From Anaerolineae bacterium (GTDB lineage: Bacteria; Chloroflexota; Anaerolineae; B4-G1; SLSP01): 36,624 nt of DNA. A program made the translations under genes and the position numbers. The notes below the pieces were generated by a model. It made no database searches, was not told the origin of the DNA, and worked only from the letters and a program-made list of their open reading frames with translations. The DNA lies in NCBI GenBank assembly GCA_049975025.1, contig JBNGDU010000116.1, positions 1 to 36,624 of the forward strand. Direction: 5' to 3'. Positions 575-11,628 of this stretch are shown here, in pieces (the stretch's first letter is position 1; each line of letters starts with the position of its first letter).

Positions 575-698
575 CAAACGACAAATCATAAACCAACAAA
601 TCACAAATCACAAACCAACAAATCACAGATCACAAATCACAAACCGGCAAATGACAAATCAGAAATCGCGAATCACAAATCACAAATCGGCAAATCAC
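575..698. repeat. Degenerate tandem heptamer/octamer array, unit about (C)AAATCA(C) on the + strand
   Basis: Direct reading: caaacga caaatca taaacca ac aaatcac aaatcac aaaccaac aaatcac agatcac aaatcac aaaccggc aaatgac aaatcag aaatcgcg aatcac aaatcac aaatcggc aaatcac. It lies between the heparinase-like stop (722) and the purD start (552). Confidence 0.85.
585..613 (-). promoter_or_regulatory. Candidate sigma70-type promoter for purD, built from the heptamer repeats
   Basis: Minus strand: -35 TTGTGA (613-608), 17-nt spacer, -10 TATGAT (590-585), about 30 nt upstream of the purD ATG. Sequence match only. Confidence 0.3.
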
Positions 699-3965: not shown

Positions 3966-4093
3966 TGCGATACTCACTCCCGGCTATCGTGATCGCGGAC
4001 CAAACTGCCCTGTGTGACTGTGCGCTTGGTGCAGAGCGTTTGCAGCGGGCGTTTTGATGGCGTGGTTTGTGTGAGAGGCGCGGCGCTGAAGCG

Positions 4094-4268
4094 CCTACTA
4101 CGAACCCCTTGAGCCGCTTCAGTAGCGTGGGTCACGCACCCTGATCCGCGTTGTACAGCCTCTCCCGCTGGATCTGCTGAGCCTACTACGAACCTCTTGC
4201 GCCGCTTCGGGAGTGTGGTCACGCGCCTTGGTCCGCGTTGTACAGCCTCTCCCGCTGGACCTGCTGAG
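4094..4268. repeat. Tandem duplication, two ~88-bp units; the second unit contains the purE stop and its last ~16 codons
   Basis: Unit 1 (4094-4181) and unit 2 (4182-4268) differ at about 10 positions plus 1 indel. Both start cctactacgaac and end ccgcgttgtacagcctctcccgctgga(t/c)ctgctgag. Confidence 0.9.
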
Positions 4269-4686
4269 CCTGCTGCACCGCGTGCTTCACATCGCCGTCG
4301 ACGAGCCCCAGCATCTTGGCGGCCAACAGCGCAGCGTTGCTCGGTTCAAGCACCACCGCGGGGGCCACGCCGGAGGGCGCGCGAAGGGAGGAGTAGATGT
4401 CCGCGCCGGCGAACTTTCTCGAGTAGGGCGGGCACGCGATGACCGGCGCTGTCACGGCAGCATCGACCATGCCGCTGAGGGCATTGCTCCGTCCGGCCAC
4501 GGTAATGTAGACTTTGGGCTCGTCCTCCGATTCGTATTCCGCCAGCATATTGAGCAGGTACTTCGGTGTCTTATGGGCCGAGGCCACGCGGGCCTCCCAC
4601 GTCAGCCCCAGTGCCTCCAGCGCCTCGGTGATCTGCTCGACGAACTCGCGGTCGCTGGGCGACCCCATTATCAAAATGACGTTCAT
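4219..4686 (-). CDS. purE: PurE-family protein with class II (AIR carboxylase-like) loop signatures
   Basis: The ORF is 4219-4743. I moved the start to ATG 4686 (MNVILIMGSPSD), which has GGAGA 7 nt upstream. Loops read SAHKTP and VAGRSNALSGMV...APVIACPP, close to the metazoan PAICS PurE domain (SAHKGP, AGRSNGLGP...PVISCPP). Class I PurE has SAHRTP and AGGAAHLPGM instead. Confidence 0.85.
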   Translation of the reverse strand: MNVILIMGSPSDREFVEQITEALEALGLTWEARVASAHKTPKYLLNMLAEYESEDEPKVYITVAGRSNALSGMVDAAVTAPVIACPPYSRKFAGADIYSSLRAPSGVAPAVVLEPSNAALLAAKMLGLVDGDVKHAVQQAQQVQRERLYNADQGA

Positions 4687-4746
4687 GGGTCCATCTCCTT
4701 CGAAGTTGGAACATCCGCCTGTTGAAACATTCCAACGTCTCACTCG

Positions 4747-6342
4747 TCAGTCATCTGTGGACAAACGTCGCTGTATCACAAGCACAACCGGGTCTCCCGT
4801 CTCCCCAAACGGATTCTCCACCATGGTAAGCCAGCCGGCGTCCTCGATCTCCACTTGGCGGCGCTCGCCGGTGAAGACGTCCATCCATTCGCCGGGGATA
4901 GGTGTTTCTGCTTTGAGGATCTGGCCGCGGTCGCCACGGGTGGCAGGCATTTCCGTGAGATCGACCAACACATCGCCGCCCTCAGGAAGATAGACGAGGT
5001 AAGCCTCGCCGGGCGCCGCGAGGCAGTAGCCCTGGTCCACCAGTGTGTTGAGCGACGTCATATGGTTGAAGGGCAGCTCGTCGAGCAGGTCCCTGAGATA
5101 GCGGTAGCGTTCCCACCCTGGCGGCTCTGGTTTGAAGCGGATGAGATCCCAGGAGGTGTTGGAGTAATAGTAGCAGGCGTAGGCCCCTGCCAGGTAGATG
5201 GCATAGGTCCAGAGCAGCACGTCCTGCCAGGGCGCTGTTGTGCGGCTCTGGTAGGTCCTGAGGGGCTCGACGCCCATCTCATAGCCGTACTCGATGTTGA
5301 TGTAGGGTTTTGGCCGAAGCTGTAGCTTTCGCCGCGCCTCGCGGTTGTAGCGGTCGATGTGGCTGAGGTGGATCTGGTCCGAGATGACGTCGCTGGCGGC
5401 GTCTGCCTCGGAGTAGCGACCTGAACTTCCTGCCTCGGCGTCGTGCACAGTCACCAGATGGCCATAGGCGTCGGTCTCGCGTATGAGCGCGATCCTACTG
5501 AGCGTGTAGTCGTGGCTGCCTGTCTCCCGCAGCAGATTGTAGCTCTCCTTGCCTATGTCCCAGATCACATTACCAAAGGCCTGGTAGCGAGCCACGACGT
5601 AGCGCCAGAAGGTCTCGTCCTCGAGAGAAAGCCGGTCGGGCCAGTTGACGTGTTTGTTCTGTACCTGGATCATGATGTGTGCCACGATGCCGCGCTCGGC
5701 CAACAGACACATCATGGCGTCGTAATCCTTGAAGAAGTCGACGTTGAGCCGGCTGTGGTCCGGGTCATCGTTAGTGCCCTCGAAGACGTACATATCGGGC
5801 GGCCCGTAGACGGTCCCCGGGATGATATCTCCTTCGAATCGGGATCCCGGCGTGGAGAAGCCGGTGTGAGCGTAGACGTTGGTCACGACGGCGTCGAAGC
5901 CGCGATCCGCGATCAGCCCGATGTGTTCCGCCGCCTTCTCCGGTTCGCGTTGATGGTACGCAAAGAGCCAGTCACACTCGAAACCCAGGTAGACCCAAGC
6001 TGTGCCGTCCTGCCAAGCGAAGCGCTGCGCGTTGGCGGGATCGATGCCCAGCGTGCCGTGCGCGTTCGGGTTCTCGGGCGGTGTGACCTCGATGGGCTCC
6101 AGCCAGACACCATCTAACCTCGGATCGTCCGACGAGGTCTGTCCCCGCCACCCGCCCTGCAGTGGGGGGCTGAAGCGGACGACGAATTCCTCGTCACCGT
6201 TGTAGAAGCCCGGTACTCGCTCGATCTTGACGCCTGATTTGTGCTCGAAGGTGGCCTCGAGCCGGAGGCGGAACGGATTGTCGTGCTCGGTGTCGCTCTG
6301 CAGCGTGAAGTCATAGATGCCATATTGGGGAATCTTGACCAT
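4747..6342 (-). CDS. Glycoside hydrolase-like protein (DUF5060-like N-terminal beta domain plus a region that may be a GH5/DUF4038-like TIM barrel); family tentative
   Basis: The ORF is 545 aa. I moved the start to ATG 6342 (MVKIPQYGIY), which has AAGGAG 8 nt upstream. Segments WDIGKESYN and INIEYGYE could hold the acid/base and nucleophile Glu of a clan GH-A enzyme. The domain calls are from memory. Confidence 0.6.
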   Translation of the reverse strand: MVKIPQYGIYDFTLQSDTEHDNPFRLRLEATFEHKSGVKIERVPGFYNGDEEFVVRFSPPLQGGWRGQTSSDDPRLDGVWLEPIEVTPPENPNAHGTLGIDPANAQRFAWQDGTAWVYLGFECDWLFAYHQREPEKAAEHIGLIADRGFDAVVTNVYAHTGFSTPGSRFEGDIIPGTVYGPPDMYVFEGTNDDPDHSRLNVDFFKDYDAMMCLLAERGIVAHIMIQVQNKHVNWPDRLSLEDETFWRYVVARYQAFGNVIWDIGKESYNLLRETGSHDYTLSRIALIRETDAYGHLVTVHDAEAGSSGRYSEADAASDVISDQIHLSHIDRYNREARRKLQLRPKPYINIEYGYEMGVEPLRTYQSRTTAPWQDVLLWTYAIYLAGAYACYYYSNTSWDLIRFKPEPPGWERYRYLRDLLDELPFNHMTSLNTLVDQGYCLAAPGEAYLVYLPEGGDVLVDLTEMPATRGDRGQILKAETPIPGEWMDVFTGERRQVEIEDAGWLTMVENPFGETGDPVVLVIQRRLSTDD

Positions 6343-6488
6343 GTCTTCATCTCCTTTCAGAATGCCCGATCTGGACGATCCCAACCTTGGCGGAAGCTAC
6401 GCGCGTCGCCCTGAGGGCGAGTCGATGGAGCCATCCAACAGCCCTGGGTTGAGAAAGCATCCCCGTGGCCTCCCGGAAGCTGATCCAT

Positions 6489-7445
6489 CTAGCCGAGATA
6501 CGATCGCAGGACGGCTTGGATCCGTGGGTCTGCGGGGTAGTCGCCCGGCTCAAAGGTCTGCCCGGACAGCCCCTCGTAGAGGCCAATGTAGCGGCGGGCA
6601 GCCTCCGCGATCACGTCGGCGGGCAGTTCCGGCGGCGTGCCGTCGCCGCGGTAGTTCTGCTCCGCGTACCAGAGGCGGACGTACTCCTTGTCCCACTGGT
6701 CCGGCTGAGGCTCGTCCATCGTGTCGGCCCGCCAGAAGCGGCTGGAGTCCGGCGTGTGCACCTCGTCAATCAACATCAAGGCGCCGTCGGTTCCTCGACC
6801 GAACTCGTACTTGGTGTCCACGAGGCAGAACCCTGCGGCCTGGGCGATCGTCTGGCCCCGTTCGAAGATGGCGAGGGCAGCGTCCTGGACCGTTTCCCAG
6901 GTCCTGGCCTCGAGAAAGCCGCGGGTGACCACCTCGTCGCAGGTGAGGCGCTCGTCGTGCTCACCGGGGCCGGCCTTGGTCGTCGGTGTGATAATGGGCT
7001 TCGGCAGTGGATCGTTCTTCTGAAGGCCGTCGGGGAAGGTGTGACCGTAAATCTCGCGGTGGCCCGACGCGTAGAGCGTCCAGAGCGACGTCTTGGTGGA
7101 GCCGGTGATGGAGCCCCGAACGATGACCTCCACCGGCAGCGGCTCGCACTCACGGACGAGGCTGACGCTGGGGTCGACCACCTCCAGCAGGTGGCTGGGC
7201 ACCACGTCCGCGGTCCGCTCGAACCAGAACGCGCTCAACTGGTTGAGCACCTGACCCTTATAGGGCAGGGCCGCGAGCACGACGTCGAAGGCGGAGAGAC
7301 GGTCCGTTGTCACAAGCAGCCGCCGATCGTCCGGCAGCATAAAGGACTCGCGGACTTTGCCGCTCTTGCGATCGTACGGCCAATCGAGATCGAGGCTTCG
7401 GAGAGCGTGGGGTATCATGGTTTTCAGCGTTTCGTGATCAAGCAT
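6489..7445 (-). CDS. purC: Phosphoribosylaminoimidazole-succinocarboxamide (SAICAR) synthase, long form
   Basis: The ORF is 6489-7478. I prefer ATG 7445 (MLDHETL) because AGGAGG lies 4 nt upstream. Motifs SGKVRES, TTDRLSAFD and LVDTKYEFG are present. Confidence 0.92.
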   Translation of the reverse strand: MLDHETLKTMIPHALRSLDLDWPYDRKSGKVRESFMLPDDRRLLVTTDRLSAFDVVLAALPYKGQVLNQLSAFWFERTADVVPSHLLEVVDPSVSLVRECEPLPVEVIVRGSITGSTKTSLWTLYASGHREIYGHTFPDGLQKNDPLPKPIITPTTKAGPGEHDERLTCDEVVTRGFLEARTWETVQDAALAIFERGQTIAQAAGFCLVDTKYEFGRGTDGALMLIDEVHTPDSSRFWRADTMDEPQPDQWDKEYVRLWYAEQNYRGDGTPPELPADVIAEAARRYIGLYEGLSGQTFEPGDYPADPRIQAVLRSYLG

Positions 7446-7628
7446 ATGACCTCCTACTCTTGTTAGGGTGCGCCCCACCTATCGTTGGTGGCGTGTGCCT
7501 GGACGTCAGACATGCCCCGCATACCAGGTTCAGCGCACTTGGTTTCAAGATCTCATCGCCAGCTTGGTTGCGAAACGTCAGACGACTTCCCCAGATGAGC
7601 CCTACCCGAGTGCGTCGCACCGATATCA
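7446..7628 (-). promoter_or_regulatory. Conserved intercistronic element, copy 1 (purQ-purC spacer); candidate structured RNA
   Basis: It shares ordered boxes with 8475-8670. These are GGTGCGACGCAC (7621-7610), GATGAGATCTTGAAACCAAGTGCGCTG (7557-7531), a CCTGG/CCAGG hairpin (7528-7498), CACACGCCACCA (7497-7486) and GGTGGGGCGCAC (7479-7468). AGGAGG follows (7455-7450). Confidence 0.45.
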
Positions 7629-8474
7629 CTACAGCTCGGCGGCGTACGCGACGCCGCGTTGGAGCAGACTGAGCCCTAAGTTCCCTCGCTGACCTCGGGT
7701 CCAGCGGGGATGCTGCTCCGGGTAGATATGATCCTCAGGGTGGGGCATCAGGCCGAAGACGGTGCCTTGCACATTGCAGATGCCGGCGATGTCCGCGGTG
7801 GAGCCGTTGGGGTTGTCGGGATACTCGGGCGCCCCGCCGCTAGCGGTAGTATAGGTGAGCGCGATCTGGTTGGCGTTGCGCAGCGATGCCAGCACGTCGT
7901 CGTTGCGAGGCACAAAACGGCCCTCGCCGTGGGCCACGGGACACGTGATGCGCTCCGAGAGGCCGCGGGTGAAGACGCACGGGCTCTCGCGGTTGGGCTC
8001 CAGCCAGACCCACCGGCACTCGAAGCGGTTCGAGACGTTCCGCGTGAGCGTGGCGCGCCCCTGTTCTCTGGAGGCGGCTGCCGCCATATCTGGAGACGTG
8101 TCTGCGGACGTGTCTGCGGACCCTGACGCTATCCCGGCTTCGGGTCCCGGAAGCCAGCCGCTTTTGACGAGCGCCTGAAAGCCGTTGCAGATGCCGAGGA
8201 CAGGTTTCCCCGTCTCGACGAAGCGGGCCAGGTGCTCTTGGAAGAGCCACCGCATATCGATTGCCAGCAACCTGCCGGCGCCCAAGGCATCGCCGTAGGA
8301 AAAGCCGCCGGGCAGTACCAACATCTGGAAGTCGTGCAGGCGGTCTGGGCTCTCGCGAAGCTCGTTGACGTGCAGGATCTCGGGAGCCCCGCCGGCAACG
8401 GTAATGGCCTCAGCGGCGTCGCCGTCCCGGTTGGTACCGGTGGCCTGCAGAATCAAGACGTTCGGTCGGGTCAA
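7629..8474 (-). CDS. purQ: Phosphoribosylformylglycinamidine synthase, glutaminase subunit
   Basis: GATase1 catalytic residues are in GICNGFQ (Cys) and MPHPE (His/Glu). The ORF-track start is GTG 8486. I prefer TTG 8474 because GGAGG (8484-8480) lies 5 nt upstream. Confidence 0.9.
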   Translation of the reverse strand: MTRPNVLILQATGTNRDGDAAEAITVAGGAPEILHVNELRESPDRLHDFQMLVLPGGFSYGDALGAGRLLAIDMRWLFQEHLARFVETGKPVLGICNGFQALVKSGWLPGPEAGIASGSADTSADTSPDMAAAASREQGRATLTRNVSNRFECRWVWLEPNRESPCVFTRGLSERITCPVAHGEGRFVPRNDDVLASLRNANQIALTYTTASGGAPEYPDNPNGSTADIAGICNVQGTVFGLMPHPEDHIYPEQHPRWTRGQRGNLGLSLLQRGVAYAAEL

Positions 8475-8670
8475 GAAAGCCTCCACGATCGCACCGTCGT
8501 GCGTCCCACCTGCGCAAGGCGTGGTCTGTAGTGCTGGTGGGGTGCACCTGCATCCGTGGGATGTCTCGCGATCAGGCGCAACGCACTCAGGTTCAAGACT
8601 TCATCACCGGGGCGATGGAGCGCCATAAACGTGTCTCTCGATTTAGTCCTCTCGCATGTGCGTCGCACCA
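8475..8670 (-). promoter_or_regulatory. Conserved intercistronic element, copy 2 (purL-purQ spacer); candidate structured RNA
   Basis: Boxes, in order: GGTGCGACGCAC (8669-8658), GGTGATGAAGTCTTGAACCTGAGTGCGTTGCGCC (8608-8575), hairpin GCGCCTG/CAGGTGC (8579-8544) with inner CATCC-cac-GGATG, GTGCACCCCACCA (8547-8535), GGTGGGACGCAC (8510-8499) and GGTGCGA (8495-8489). GGAGG follows (8484-8480). Confidence 0.45.
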
Positions 8671-11628
8671 CTACACAATCTCCGCGGACTGCCAAGCTTC
8701 GACGAGGTCATCGACGGCGGCCTCAATTGCCGCCTGACCGTCGAGCCCTTCCATTCTCAGCACGGGCGACTCGGTCACTACCCCGATGCGGGCGCAAGGT
8801 CGCCCCACCATCTGAGCCTCGAAGGCCTCGGCGTCCTCAGACGACACCTCGACCAGGAAGCGGCTGTTGCTCTCGGAGAAGAGCAGGGCCCGAGCGGTGT
8901 CAACCACACGGTCGGCATCCATCGCCGGATTGCGCATCATCTTGATCAGTTCTAACTGCAAACCCATCCGACCTGCGATCGCCATCTCCGCGGCGGCGAC
9001 CGCAAGGCCGCCCTCCGAGAGATCGTGGATCGCCCGCACGTATCCTGTACTGACGGCGCTGTGGAGGGCCCGGAAGGTCTGCGGTGCGTCAGCGACTGGA
9101 GTTGGGGGGGCGCCGCCCAAGGCGCCGTGAAGCCGGTGGTAGAGCGAACCGCCCAGCTCGGCGCGCGTCTCGCCGATCAAGTAGACGACATCGCCTGCCT
9201 GCTTCAGGTCCATCGTCACAGCTCGGGTCACGTCGGGCACAATGCCCAGCGATGAGATCAGCAGCGTCGGCGGGATTGTACGCTTGTCGCCGTGGGCGTC
9301 CACGAACTCGTTGTTGAGGCTGTCCTTGCCCGAGATGAAAGGCGTGCCATAGGCCAGGGCCGCATCATAGCAGCCCTGGGCCGCCCGCACCAGACTGCCT
9401 AGGCGATCCGGAAGGGCCGGGTTGCCCCAGCAGAAGTTGTCCAGCAGCGCGACCCTGTCGGGATCGGCCCCGACGCAGACCACGTTTCGTATGGCTTCAT
9501 CAATCGCGGCCCAGGCCATCGCGTAGGGATCGACCCTGCCGAGATGCGGATTGACGCCACAGCCGAGGGCGATACCTCGTTGCCCCTCCGCCATAAGGGG
9601 GCGCAGGACGGCAGCGTCCGAGGGACCGTCGTCGGCGACGCCAACCAAGGGTTTCACCATCGTGGCGCCTTGCACCTCGTGATCATACCGGCGGATGACG
9701 GCCTCTTTGCTGGCCACGTCGGGATGGGCTAGTGCTGCGAGGAGGATCGCGGTGAGCGACGCATCGTCCGGGATCTGAGGTGTCGGATGATCCGGCGCGG
9801 TCCAGACGGCCTCCAGCTCCGGGCGCGGCCATCCCTTGTGGACGAATGCCATCGGCATGTCGGCGACAAGCTGGTCGCCGTAGTGGACGCGGAGCTGACC
9901 GTCGCCGGTAAAGCGACCGATCACCGTCCATTCCACATTGTAGATCGCGCAGATCTCGCCTAACCGGGCCAGATTCGACTCAGGCACCGCCAAGACCATA
10001 CGCTCCTGGGCTTCGGAGAGCCAGATCTCCCATGGCCGCAGGCCCGGATACTTCAGCGGTACGTCCTGTAGTTCGACGTCGACGCCGACCTCGTGGCCCA
10101 TCTCGCCGACCGCGGAGGAGAAGCCGCCCGCGCCGCAGTCGGTGATAGCGCTGTAGAGCCCCTCGTCCCTGGCTTGCATCACGGCGTCGAGCACAGCTTT
10201 CTCCGTGATCGGATCGCCAATCTGCACCACGCTGCCGACGGTCTCACCGGTCTCGTGAGTGAGTTCAGCCGATGAGAAAGTGGCGCCGTGGAGCCCGTCG
10301 CGTCCCGTACGCCCGCCCAGCGCCACGACGAGGTCGTTGGGCTGGGGCTCCGTGCGGTGCACGCCCTTGGGCGCGATGCCCACGCAGCCACAGTAGACGA
10401 GCGGATTGGCGACGTAGTCCTCGTGGTAGAGGATCGCCCCGGAGACGGTTGGGATCCCCATTTTGTTGCCGTAGTCCTCGATCCCGGCGACGACGCCGCG
10501 CGCGATCCGCCGCGGGTGGAGCGTGCCCAGCGGGACCTCCGAGCCCCTCATATCGAGCGGGCCGAAGCACAGGACGTCGGAGTTGGCGATGGGGCGGGCG
10601 GAGACGCCGATGATATCGCGGATGACGCCACCCACGCCGGTATTTGCGCCACCGAAAGGCTCCAACGCCGATGGGTGGTTATGAGTTTCCACTTTGAATG
10701 AGATCTCGTACACGTCATCGAATTCGACGATCCCGGCGTTGTCGACAAAGGCCGAGCGAACCCACGGCCTCGCGAGGCTCTCAGTAGCCTCGCGAAGGTA
10801 GGAGCGGATTAGGCTCTCTATCGTCTCCCGGTCTCCTCGGGTCGCGGATGTGTTGCCCGCACCCTCCGCCTCCGGTCTCAAGCGCGGCATGCCGCCGCTG
10901 CAGCGGTAGTCGATCCGGGCCTTGAAGGTCTTGTGAAGGCAGTGCTCGGACCACGTCTGGGCAAGCGTCTCCAGCTCAACGTCGGTCGGTTCCCGCTCCA
11001 ACTTGCGAAACTCCCTCCGGATGGCGCGCATCTCGGGGAGCGAGAGGAAGAGGACGCGGTTGACGCTCAAGTCGACCAGTTGCGCGTCGTTGAGATCGAG
11101 CAGCGGGATTGTATCTACAGCGCTGCTGGGCGAGGCGTCCGGGACGAACTCCGGCGTCATAGGGCCCACGCTATAGGATTGGATGACCTCGTTGGCGAGG
11201 AGCTCGCCTGCGATCTGGTGGACCTCGATTGGGTCCAGTTCGCCCACGATTTCGTAGCGCTGACCCGTCGTCACGGCCTCCAGACCCTCGAGGTCGAGAA
11301 GCTTGGCCCGGCTCAGCAGATGGGTGGCGACCGGATCGGTGACCCCTGGATGGAATCCTACCTCGATCACGTGATATCCTTCTGGCGCCTGGTGAGTGGC
11401 GGGTACGGAGCTCCAACGGTACCCCTCGACAACGGGGTCAACGAGGAGCTCGGTCGCGAGGAGATCGATCTGGCCCGGGGTCAGTTTACCGCGAAGGAAG
11501 TAAAGGTTGCTGATAGCGGCGTGGTCGACTTGGTCCAGGCCCAAATGGGCGATCTGGTCCAAGAGATCGACGACGCGACCGTCGATACCTCCACGCCAGA
11601 ACACTTCAACGCGATAAGTATCTGTCAT
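8671..11628 (-). CDS. purL: Phosphoribosylformylglycinamidine synthase subunit PurL with two N-terminal PurS-like domains fused (PurS-PurS-PurL)
   Basis: 985-aa ORF. Residues ~1-75 (YRVEVFWRGG...LLVDPVVEGYRW) and ~85-160 (HVIEVGFHPGVTDP...ELLANEVIQSYSV) each look like a PurS protein. The rest is a small-type PurL: AQTWSEHCLHKTF, ETHNHPS, GGANTGVGGVIRD, and duplicated AIR-synthase-like domains. Confidence 0.9.
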   Translation of the reverse strand: MTDTYRVEVFWRGGIDGRVVDLLDQIAHLGLDQVDHAAISNLYFLRGKLTPGQIDLLATELLVDPVVEGYRWSSVPATHQAPEGYHVIEVGFHPGVTDPVATHLLSRAKLLDLEGLEAVTTGQRYEIVGELDPIEVHQIAGELLANEVIQSYSVGPMTPEFVPDASPSSAVDTIPLLDLNDAQLVDLSVNRVLFLSLPEMRAIRREFRKLEREPTDVELETLAQTWSEHCLHKTFKARIDYRCSGGMPRLRPEAEGAGNTSATRGDRETIESLIRSYLREATESLARPWVRSAFVDNAGIVEFDDVYEISFKVETHNHPSALEPFGGANTGVGGVIRDIIGVSARPIANSDVLCFGPLDMRGSEVPLGTLHPRRIARGVVAGIEDYGNKMGIPTVSGAILYHEDYVANPLVYCGCVGIAPKGVHRTEPQPNDLVVALGGRTGRDGLHGATFSSAELTHETGETVGSVVQIGDPITEKAVLDAVMQARDEGLYSAITDCGAGGFSSAVGEMGHEVGVDVELQDVPLKYPGLRPWEIWLSEAQERMVLAVPESNLARLGEICAIYNVEWTVIGRFTGDGQLRVHYGDQLVADMPMAFVHKGWPRPELEAVWTAPDHPTPQIPDDASLTAILLAALAHPDVASKEAVIRRYDHEVQGATMVKPLVGVADDGPSDAAVLRPLMAEGQRGIALGCGVNPHLGRVDPYAMAWAAIDEAIRNVVCVGADPDRVALLDNFCWGNPALPDRLGSLVRAAQGCYDAALAYGTPFISGKDSLNNEFVDAHGDKRTIPPTLLISSLGIVPDVTRAVTMDLKQAGDVVYLIGETRAELGGSLYHRLHGALGGAPPTPVADAPQTFRALHSAVSTGYVRAIHDLSEGGLAVAAAEMAIAGRMGLQLELIKMMRNPAMDADRVVDTARALLFSESNSRFLVEVSSEDAEAFEAQMVGRPCARIGVVTESPVLRMEGLDGQAAIEAAVDDLVEAWQSAEIV

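Follow-up and report, generated by a model that had tools for sequence, protein, structure and literature searches.

The purL-purQ and purQ-purC spacers of a Chloroflexota contig are very probably filled by copies of a dispersed REP/REPIN-type palindrome

The two long spacers of the pur cluster described here, purL-purQ and purQ-purC, are in all likelihood each filled by copies of a dispersed REP/REPIN-type palindrome of Chloroflexota. The element does not sense purines, since the same palindromic repeat adjoins unrelated genes in other Chloroflexota. The initial annotation had proposed an undescribed pur-operon RNA, possibly a purine-pathway sensor; this proposal was abandoned, because the same boxes were found in 50 loci unrelated to pur genes, flank RAYT transposase genes and are absent from the pur junctions of relatives with 70-73% PurQ identity. 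The third alternative of that annotation, a lineage-specific intergenic repeat, was the one supported.

Gene Cluster and Spacers

The window studied was one whole contig of 36.6 kb, which is the sole view of this organism's genome. It carries a purS-purL fusion, purQ and purC (Table 1). The product of purSL matched NCBIfam TIGR01736 (617 bits) and contained in addition a PurS-like stretch at residues 88-154; those of purQ and purC matched TIGR01737 (188.7 bits) and NF009251 (369.5 bits), respectively. The boxes are found in the same order in both long spacers and nowhere else in the window.

Table 1. Genes and repeat units of the pur cluster, in order of transcription.
Feature	Positions	Strand	Details
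purSL (PurS-PurL fusion, 985 aa)	8671..11628	-	stop TAG 8673-8671
REPIN-like unit 1, purL-purQ spacer	8574..8670	-	begins 1 nt past purL stop; 5' arm tGGTGCGACGCACat 8670-8656; inner 67 nt 8655-8589; 3' arm gAGTGCGTTGCgCCT 8588-8574
Second, degenerate REP hairpin, purL-purQ spacer (probable)	8497..8549	-	AGGTGCACCCCACCA 8549-8535 pairs with AGGTGGGACGCACGA 8511-8497 via CCCACC/GGTGGG
purQ	7629..8474	-	TTG start 8474-8472; GGAGG 8484-8480; stop TAG 7631-7629
REPIN-like unit 1, purQ-purC spacer	7526..7622	-	begins 6 nt past purQ stop; 5' arm cGGTGCGACGCACTc 7622-7608; inner 67 nt 7607-7541; 3' arm AAGTGCGcTGaACCT 7540-7526
Second, degenerate REP hairpin, purQ-purC spacer (probable)	7466..7500	-	AGGCACACGCCACCA 7500-7486 pairs with AGGTGGGGCGCACCC 7480-7466 via CCACC/GGTGG, 7-nt loop
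purC	6489..7445	-	ATG 7445-7443; AGGAGG 7455-7450

The box geometry given in the initial annotation was largely reproduced. The 12-mer GGTGCGACGCAC lies in both spacers, at 8669-8658 and 7621-7610 (minus strand), 1 nt past the purL stop and 7 nt past the purQ stop, and a gap of exactly 71 nt separates it in both copies from GTGCG(T/C)TG, at 8586 and 7538. A GATGA box is present in each copy (GATGAAGTCTTGAA, 8605-8592; GATGAGATCTTGAA, 7557-7544), but it stands 5 nt before GTGCG(T/C)TG and not immediately before it, as had been stated. CCTG...CAGG, CAC-N-CCACCA and GGTGGG(A/G)CGCAC then follow in both spacers, the last of them at 8510-8499 and 7479-7468, 14 nt before the GGAGG of purQ and 12 nt before the AGGAGG of purC. 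The sequence between the boxes was likewise found not to be alignable, with scores barely above those of shuffled controls (z = 1.1 to 2.2). Elsewhere in the 36.6 kb, neither the exact 12-mer nor the GATGARRTCTTGAA box was found. Only two copies of the element are visible in the contig and both are inside the pur cluster, an observation that counts against the REPIN reading.

Repeat Family in Metagenomes

One metagenome scan for both arms yielded 50 loci with the repeat, in 48 distinct insertion contexts; about 4 loci had been estimated beforehand for a collection assumed to hold about 10^12 bases. In its consensus form the repeat reads AGGTGCGACGCACTT, 62-72 variable nt (mode 67-68) and AAGTGCGTTGCACCT; the two ends are inverted 15-nt arms, which pair as a stem of 15 bp containing one G.T wobble. 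The arms vary little or not at all, and the inner columns show no conservation. The 12-mer GGTGCGACGCAC and AGTGCGYTG..CCT correspond to the two inverted arms; the boxes first noticed in the spacers are arms of the repeat and the unalignable stretch between them is its fast-evolving inner segment. A short form also exists, a 34-nt hairpin with the same arms and a loop of 3-4 nt, found singly or in tandem arrays, which folds into a 15-bp stem (-25.2 kcal/mol, z = -7.6).

Genes for purSL, purQ, purC and purF were absent around the 50 loci (tblastn with PurSL, PurQ, PurC and PurF; 263 kb). The neighbours that could be named encode an M48 peptidase, a solute-binding protein, an ArsR regulator, a zinc peptidase, GtrA, a histidine kinase and an FAD oxidoreductase. 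Copies scattered whatever the gene context, which the initial annotation had regarded as the mark of a plain repeat, were nearly what was found, although they lie in contigs of other organisms and not in this genome. Several contigs carry multiple copies, either separate (L086, L133) or as tandem arrays (L126, L127). An identical inner sequence was present at 5-6 different sites, and the inner part was flipped once. Twelve of 42 elements abut the end of an ORF within 15 nt, a count that rests on crude ORF calls and is too noisy to indicate a preference for insertion beside stop codons.

The exact arm cores (11-mers GTGCGACGCAC and GTGCGTTGCAC, with their complements) were not found in 1.2 Mb of control loci. 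No GTAG or terminal CGTC tag adjoins the palindrome, positions upstream of the arm holding at most 0.1 bits of information, and the flanks of the repeat showed no consistent target-site duplication. No known Rfam family accounts for the element: nothing in the window reached a gathering score, and the matches in the region had E values of at least 3.8, which is chance level. Ten loci with canonical copies gave no Rfam match at E values up to 1.

Repeat Units in the Window

A covariance model, R1, was constructed from 31 metagenome elements, with the window copies left out. Its matches in the window were precisely 8574-8670 and 7526-7622 (minus strand), no other stretch being comparable. Both matches were full-length (22.1 bits, E = 0.013, and 21.2 bits, E = 0.021, respectively; 436 kb searched), their modest scores being due to decay of the window arms. 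R1 also matched L081 (45.4 bits) and L138 (27.7 bits), and in 18 control Chloroflexota loci it gave nothing better than E = 9.5. Position-weight matrices of the arms, derived from unrelated metagenome copies, assigned the four best scores in the window, 14-20 bits, to these four arms (14.3 and 16.7 bits for 8574-8670; 19.6 and 15.7 bits for 7526-7622), while shuffles yielded 0-7 matches at 8 bits or more. Both units have an inner segment of 67 nt, within the range of the family. Judged by sequence, the two units belong to the metagenome repeat family and their arms are partly decayed.

In the window and in L081 alike, the long forms fold with these same arms as the closing stem. In the minimum-energy fold of 8574-8670 the arms pair as a 12-bp closing stem (z = -2.5), and 7526-7622 closes through its arms with mismatches (z = -1.3). 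Folds of the whole spacers were no better than those of shuffles (z = -0.2); the individual units alone stand out.

The 3' boxes, CCACC and GGTGGGRCGCAC, resemble a second hairpin in degenerate form, its arms being of a variant type found intact in a relative. In the purL-purQ spacer, GGTGGGACGCAC has one mismatch against the canonical arm and equals the core of the intact variant arm AGGTGGGACGCACTT of L138; the stem is present in the fold and its pairing is kept in L081 as TTCACC/GGTGAG. In the purQ-purC spacer, the hairpin aligns with the matching part of the purL-purQ spacer and GGTGGGGCGCAC has two mismatches against the canonical arm. Since neither second hairpin reached the R1 threshold, that at 8497-8549 is listed as a probable REP hairpin, as is its counterpart at 7466-7500.

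Association with RAYT Genes

An ORF adjoining the L126 array matched Pfam Y1_Tnp (30.1 bits, cut-off 23) and the NCBIfam REP-associated tyrosine transposase (E = 1e-20); the score for NCBIfam REP_Tyr_transpos, 74 bits, was just below the cut-off of 80. RAYT genes with repeats on both sides were found in L126, L086, L132, L133 and L134, the downstream repeat of L133 being a half-site. The homologues are named 'REP element-mobilizing transposase RayT' in their sources, two of them labelled Chloroflexota bacterium, and two of these five loci come from MAGs labelled Chloroflexota. The RAYTs are only 54-65% identical, yet the arms are nearly invariant across them. No RAYT gene was found in the 36.6 kb of the window.

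The elements are non-autonomous and, by analogy with known systems, would most likely be copied as single-stranded DNA hairpins by RAYT (Y1/HUH tyrosine transposase). Near-identical elements are present at different sites, which may bear on such mobilisation of single-stranded DNA.

These data also bear on the possibility that the element is an ordinary MITE with terminal inverted repeats, mobilised by a DDE transposase, or that a DNA-binding protein uses it as a palindromic operator (GTGCG-N-CGCAC). The 15-bp terminal inverted repeats and the size of about 97 bp are indeed MITE-like, and each arm has a palindromic core. We nevertheless consider both readings very unlikely: consistent target-site duplications are lacking in the flanks, the repeat also occurs as a short hairpin and in tandem arrays, it lies directly beside the RAYT gene in 5/5 RAYT loci that carry it, and its sites follow stop codons or adjoin transposase genes and not promoters.

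Comparison with Known Repeats

REPINs, doublets of REP sequences that form hairpins, and their RAYT transposases were defined in Pseudomonas fluorescens SBW25 and E. coli (Bertels and Rainey 2011, PMC3116915; PMC3337134). Their ends are conserved; the spacer is less so, but its length and its capacity to form a hairpin matter, and in the Pseudomonas GI family the starts of the two conserved 16-mers lie 71 bp apart (PMC3116915). The present family shares with them the two conserved inverted ends, a spacer of constrained length (about 67-68 nt here), the hairpin fold, many extragenic copies in clusters and tandem arrays, a flanked RAYT gene and the persistence of copies at the same site in related lineages. 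It differs in the sequence of the arms, in a host that is a Chloroflexota (Anaerolineae-like) and not a member of the Proteobacteria, and in that its arms also form a minimal 34-nt hairpin and stay near-invariant across divergent RAYTs. Its mobility is here putative.

As in enterobacterial REP/BIME elements of operon spacers (e.g. malE-malF), imperfect palindromes would be transcribed within an operon; the elements are often clustered in alternating orientation and can start a few nucleotides past a stop codon. The 67-nt insert between the arms of the window copies and the lack of a GTAG tag set them apart from the enterobacterial elements. REPs have been reported in Chloroflexi, together with RAYT genes flanked by REPs or longer inverted repeats of moderately abundant families (Di Nocera et al. 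2013, PMC3733652). Unlike the GTAG- and CGTC-tagged superfamilies of that study, the present arms have no terminal GTAG and contain CGTC only internally, on the opposite strand. The missing GTAG tag does not exclude a REP, because the tag defines those superfamilies and not REPs in general. A full-text search for the 11-mer found no earlier description of the repeat and returned only unrelated, non-repeat matches.

REPINs have been studied mostly in Proteobacteria, and a REP/REPIN-RAYT family with near-invariant 15-nt arms is documented here in uncultured Chloroflexota. Its arms show that such repeats can mimic the pattern of a structured RNA, with conserved boxes and a variable interior. The consensus and the model can be used for masking these repeats in RNA-motif screens and for studying REPIN persistence in Chloroflexota.

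Pur Junctions of Relatives and Possible Effects of the Hairpins

In the nearest relative, L081 (83% PurQ identity), both of these junctions likewise carry elements that start at the stop codon. The 5' arm of its purL element begins 1 nt past the stop, as in the window, and a further palindrome family has since invaded its second spacer. The presence of the elements at the same junctions in L081 may reflect selection for their retention instead of neutral persistence. In relatives with 70-73% PurQ identity (L001 and L136 to L138) the element is absent from the pur junctions; L001, the best relative among GTDB representatives (71%), has short pur spacers without boxes, and in L136 to L138 genes occupy these junctions. 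An inverted-repeat scan of the long pur spacers of L003 and L004 gave nothing related. The absence of the boxes from orthologous pur spacers, mentioned in the initial annotation as evidence against a pur-specific RNA, was observed at 70-73% identity but not in L081. A gap of 204 nt follows purQ in P0003, an 83% relative.

No terminator-like site was found in either spacer, which fits hairpins that would be transcribed within the pur mRNA. By analogy with REP hairpins elsewhere, these would act as barriers to 3'-5' decay and, with a stem that starts only 1-7 nt past the stop codon, they may also hinder terminating ribosomes. The threshold distance between a REP and the stop codon for such stalling is reportedly about 15 nt. 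Either effect could shift the PurL:PurQ:PurC output. A secondary effect of this kind on mRNA stability or termination just past the purL and purQ stops is plausible, and would correspond to the second alternative of the initial annotation, a processing or stability element. mRNA stabilisation and ribosome stalling at termination are effects ascribed to enterobacterial REP/BIME elements (PMC12306157). Should the hairpins indeed act on termination or decay, they would offer a plain case in which mobile DNA alters the relative expression of genes in a biosynthetic operon.

A stronger reading is that of a domesticated REP, which arrived by transposition and whose hairpins behind the purL and purQ stops are now kept, tuning segment stability or termination and setting the ratio of FGAM synthase subunits and PurC. 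We regard this as unlikely, and give no greater chance to a closely related version in which co-opted REPIN hairpins serve as operon-internal valves (decay barrier or termination-coupled stalling), kept in two lineages and setting the PurSL:PurQ:PurC stoichiometry. Domestication is favoured by the occupation of the same two junctions in the window and L081 despite a protein divergence of about 13-17%, by the identical position of the 5' arm 1 nt past the purL stop in both, by arms that are conserved around a nearly random inner sequence, and by the read-through expected from spacers without a terminator-like site. It also agrees with the stalling of ribosomes by REPs near stop codons in E. coli, in so far as Liang et al. 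2015 is summarised in PMC12306157. On the other hand, the relatives whose PurQ is 70-73% identical do without the element at these junctions, the window arms are decaying, and the re-invaded second spacer of L081 looks like a neutral landing pad. REPINs are, moreover, known to be inherited vertically over long periods while serving no function in the host (bioRxiv 10.1101/2021.07.10.451892).

RNA and Protein-Coding Alternatives

A purine-pathway riboswitch or pur-specific structured RNA, with one copy ahead of purQ and another ahead of purC, is close to refuted and has, in our judgement, hardly any chance of being correct. Boxes conserved around a variable interior, a single compensatory change in the CCACC/GGTGG stem and the lack of a matching Rfam family would all suit it. 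Against these stand the absence of any pur association (0/50 loci), the transposase genes flanked by the repeat, the orthologous junctions of relatives that lack the element, and whole-spacer folds equal to shuffles. An expression platform is also missing: there is no terminator-like site, and the ribosome-binding site is unpaired or weakly paired in the folds. A false riboswitch candidate is in this way removed.

Equally improbable is a reading of the spacers as a pair of paralogous small genes (sense ORFs 8471-8695 and 7438-7629), even though open frames span both spacers, the first two boxes are read in the same frame (VRRT and GDE(V/I)L..SAL.L for the first and middle box) and some differences between the copies are synonymous or conservative. 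Neither ORF matches NCBIfam. This reading, attractive at first, was dropped: among 31 family members there is no frame preference, the frame being open in only 12, fewer than for two other frames; past CCTG the copies differ by a 1-nt indel that shifts the frame, and still the 3' boxes are conserved as nucleotides; and in the second spacer of L081 the same frame stops after 8 codons.

Shared Boxes of the Two pur Spacers

The spacers between purL and purQ (spacer 1) and between purQ and purC (spacer 2) aligned with 75% column identity, which was concentrated in boxes. When both spacers were re-read, all the boxes reported in the initial annotation were found in the order and at the coordinates described, except that GATGA..TCTTGAA (GATGARRTCTTGAA), said to stand immediately before the GTGCG box, lies 5 nt before it. 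This box and the 12-mer GGTGCGACGCAC were confined to the two spacers within the 36.6 kb window, and the shared boxes are real and beyond chance. The first and middle boxes are inverted complements, GGUGCGACGCAC pairing with GUGCGUUGCGCC in a 12-bp stem enclosing about 70 nt.

Coordinates of features in the window and in the compared loci
Feature	Source	Positions	Strand	Details
Heptamer array (ACAAATC)	window	575-698		~16 copies; higher-order periods 22, 29, 43 nt
87-nt tandem duplication	window	4093-4271	minus	2.0 copies, 89% matches
purE (AIR carboxylase)	window	4219-4743	minus	
Glycosidase-like gene	window	4747-6384	minus	545 aa; Apiosidase-like and DUF5060 domains
PurC	window	6489-7445	minus	
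Spacer 2	window	7446-7628		
Long-form element, spacer 2	window	7526-7622	minus	
PurQ	window	7629-8474	minus	TTG start
12-nt tandem repeat in purQ	window	8095-8121		
Spacer 1	window	8475-8670		
Long-form element, spacer 1	window	8574-8670	minus	
PurS-PurL fusion	window	8671-11628	minus	
Direct duplication, purL-purQ spacer	L081	1880-1950		
Second palindromic family, purQ-purC spacer	L081	2857-2937		
Short hairpins	L093	4870-4900, 5551-5581		
Y1 transposase gene	L093	5034-5507		
Element with inverted inner segment	L109	4915-5009		

Anatomy and Membership of the Repeat Family

Metagenome contigs were scanned with the pattern GTGCGACGCAC, 62-78 nt, AGTGCGYTGNNCC. This two-arm scan returned 50 loci, against approximately 4 chance matches expected from a rough prior estimate that assumed a collection of about 10^12 bases. 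Alignment of the loci gave a well-defined consensus, AGGTGCGACGCACTT followed by AAGTGCGTTGCACCT with a variable inner segment between them. A single G.T wobble interrupts the otherwise perfect pairing of the 15-nt arms, and there is almost no information at inner or flanking positions. The inner segment measures 62-72 nt (mode 67-68) and is 67 nt in both window units, which accounts for the spacing of exactly 71 nt between boxes previously remarked upon. The family also has a short form, a 34-nt hairpin (AGGTGCGACGCACTT-TCTG-AAGTGCGTTGCACCT; -25.2 kcal/mol, z = -7.6), present as tandem arrays in loci L126, L127 and L099.

A covariance model was built from 31 metagenome elements with the arms alone paired, leaving out the window and L081, the pur locus of the nearest relative. 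In a 436 kb search it matched both window units at full length (22.1 bits, E = 0.013 in spacer 1; 21.2 bits, E = 0.021 in spacer 2). The same model scored 45.4 bits on spacer 1 of L081 and 27.7 bits on an element that lies upstream of purF in L138, the locus of a relative with 70-73% PurQ identity, while 18 control Chloroflexota loci gave no match better than E = 9.5. The window copies belong to the family, and their arms are partly decayed (tGGTGCGACGCACat / gAGTGCGTTGCgCCT and cGGTGCGACGCACTc / AAGTGCGcTGaACCT).

Distribution and Association with RAYT Transposases

Rather than being a pur element, the spacer element is a dispersed repeat. The 50 metagenome loci represent 48 different insertion contexts, and no PurSL, PurQ, PurC or PurF gene was detected in the 263 kb around them (tblastn, window proteins as queries), contradicting the pur-operon RNA element that had been proposed. 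Scattering of copies whatever the gene context, named in the initial annotation as evidence against its own proposal, was observed across the contigs of other organisms, the scope covered. Nameable neighbouring genes encode an M48 peptidase, a solute-binding protein, an ArsR-type regulator, a zinc metallopeptidase, GtrA, a histidine kinase and an FAD oxidoreductase. Identical inner sequence was found at five or six different sites. Compared with L082, L087, L093 and L094, the 67-nt inner segment of the L109 element is reverse-complemented between arms of unchanged polarity, G.T wobble included; the inversion looks as if the inverted arms had recombined with each other. No exact arm core was present in control loci totalling 1.2 Mb, drawn from the surroundings of purQ in other organisms, 18 Chloroflexota among them.

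The repeat is linked to REP-associated tyrosine transposase (RAYT) genes. The L126 array adjoins a 195-aa ORF that matched Pfam Y1_Tnp above the cut-off and the NCBIfam model for these transposases just below its cut-off (E = 1e-20), with one repeat hairpin on either side of the gene. One long-form element lies on one side of the L086 RAYT gene (54% identical), and several are clustered on its opposite side. A database search gave 2395 relatives of the L126 protein, many source-named 'REP element-mobilizing transposase RayT' and two labelled Chloroflexota bacterium. Further RAYT loci were examined in L132 and L133, whose source MAGs carry the label Chloroflexota, and in L134; all three genes are bracketed by this family's short hairpins, the downstream one in L133 being a half-site only. 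A transposase gene flanked by repeats, as in L126, L086 and L132-L134, is the likeness to REP/REPIN-RAYT systems, of which it is the defining arrangement (PMC3116915, PMC3733652). By analogy with this known family, the repeat would be copied by the RAYT through single-stranded DNA hairpins. The RAYT association, together with the existence of a short hairpin form and the absence of target-site duplications, makes both a DDE-type MITE and an operator site unlikely.

Second Hairpin in Each Spacer

In folds of both spacers, the CAC-N-CCACCA box pairs with the GGTGGG(A/G)CGCAC box. Because these 3' boxes pair, and because GGTGGGACGCAC has 1 mismatch to the canonical arm and forms the core of a variant arm pair that is intact in L138 (AGGTGGGACGCACTT ... 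AAGTGCGTCCCACTG), the 3' half is probably another hairpin of this superfamily, more degenerate and with its arms in opposite order. We infer this from the sequence, since the covariance model falls short of the 3' half. Each spacer would thus contain a BIME-like cluster.

Comparison with Relatives

L081, the closest relative found (PurQ 83%, PurSL 86%, PurC 88%), has long spacers too. In spacer 1 the long-form unit persists with near-consensus arms and unchanged spacing, the second stem is compensated (TTCACC/GGTGAG), and a stretch of about 38 nt within the spacer is directly duplicated (GGCAGTATAGGTCACTGCTGCGGCAGGTG...), adding an arm-like unit much as in a small REP array. In spacer 2 the 5' arm is still perfect and overlaps the stop codon, and the spacer has been invaded by a second palindromic family, GACCCTAAGGGT ... 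ACCCTTAGGGTC, absent from the window; short hairpins of this family bracket a different Y1 transposase gene in metagenome locus L093. Among relatives with 70-73% PurQ identity, L001 has short pur spacers, and L136, L137 and L138 carry GNAT acetyltransferase genes between purSL and purQ and a fructosamine-kinase-like gene between purQ and purC, joined in L138 by a PhdYeFM/PIN toxin-antitoxin pair. No element was found at these two junctions in L136-L138, and the pur-cluster junctions of this clade are plastic. These comparisons therefore mark the junctions as plastic landing sites and the element as dispensable for the pur genes.

Small ORFs were considered, as both spacers are open in the frame that reads the boxes identically, and were rejected: a 1-nt indel shifts the frame, yet the 3' boxes stay conserved; in L081 spacer 2 that frame meets a stop after 8 codons; and just 12 of the 31 family members have it open. 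A pur-specific riboswitch fails, with no association with pur genes across the 50 metagenome loci, no expression platform found in either spacer and no conservation at these junctions in the relatives with 70-73% PurQ identity.

Possible Effects and Novelty of the Repeat

No terminator-like site was found in either pur spacer, which is consistent with transcription of the repeat hairpins within the pur mRNA. Stalling by REPs has a threshold distance of about 15 nt from the stop codon. The stems start 1 nt after the purL stop and 7 nt after the purQ stop. A passage of PMC12306157 describes REP hairpins as stabilising upstream mRNA segments and, summarising Liang et al. 2015, as stalling terminating ribosomes when near the stop codon. 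By analogy, the hairpins near the purL and purQ stops could alter PurL:PurQ:PurC output; that such an effect has been selected for is improbable.

REP/REPIN-RAYT systems are well known. REPs have already been reported in Chloroflexi (PMC3733652). A full-text literature search with the arm sequence returned just two papers, both unrelated, and the repeat had no match in Rfam. The main value of these results is the removal of a false riboswitch candidate; a consensus and a model for the repeat are provided.

Other Features of the Contig

Within purQ a 12-nt unit is perfectly repeated in tandem (GACGTGTCTGCG, 2.2 copies; sense strand tccgcagacacg tccgcagacacg tct), and many of the nearest PurQ homologues, at 258 aa against 281 in the window, are shorter by about 20 residues. 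The 87-nt duplication at the purE-purF junction, unrelated to the REP arms, overlaps the purE 3' end and fills much of the 241-nt spacer. The glycosidase-like gene lies between purC and purE in a cluster that is otherwise purine-biosynthetic, and the heptamer array is located near the contig start.
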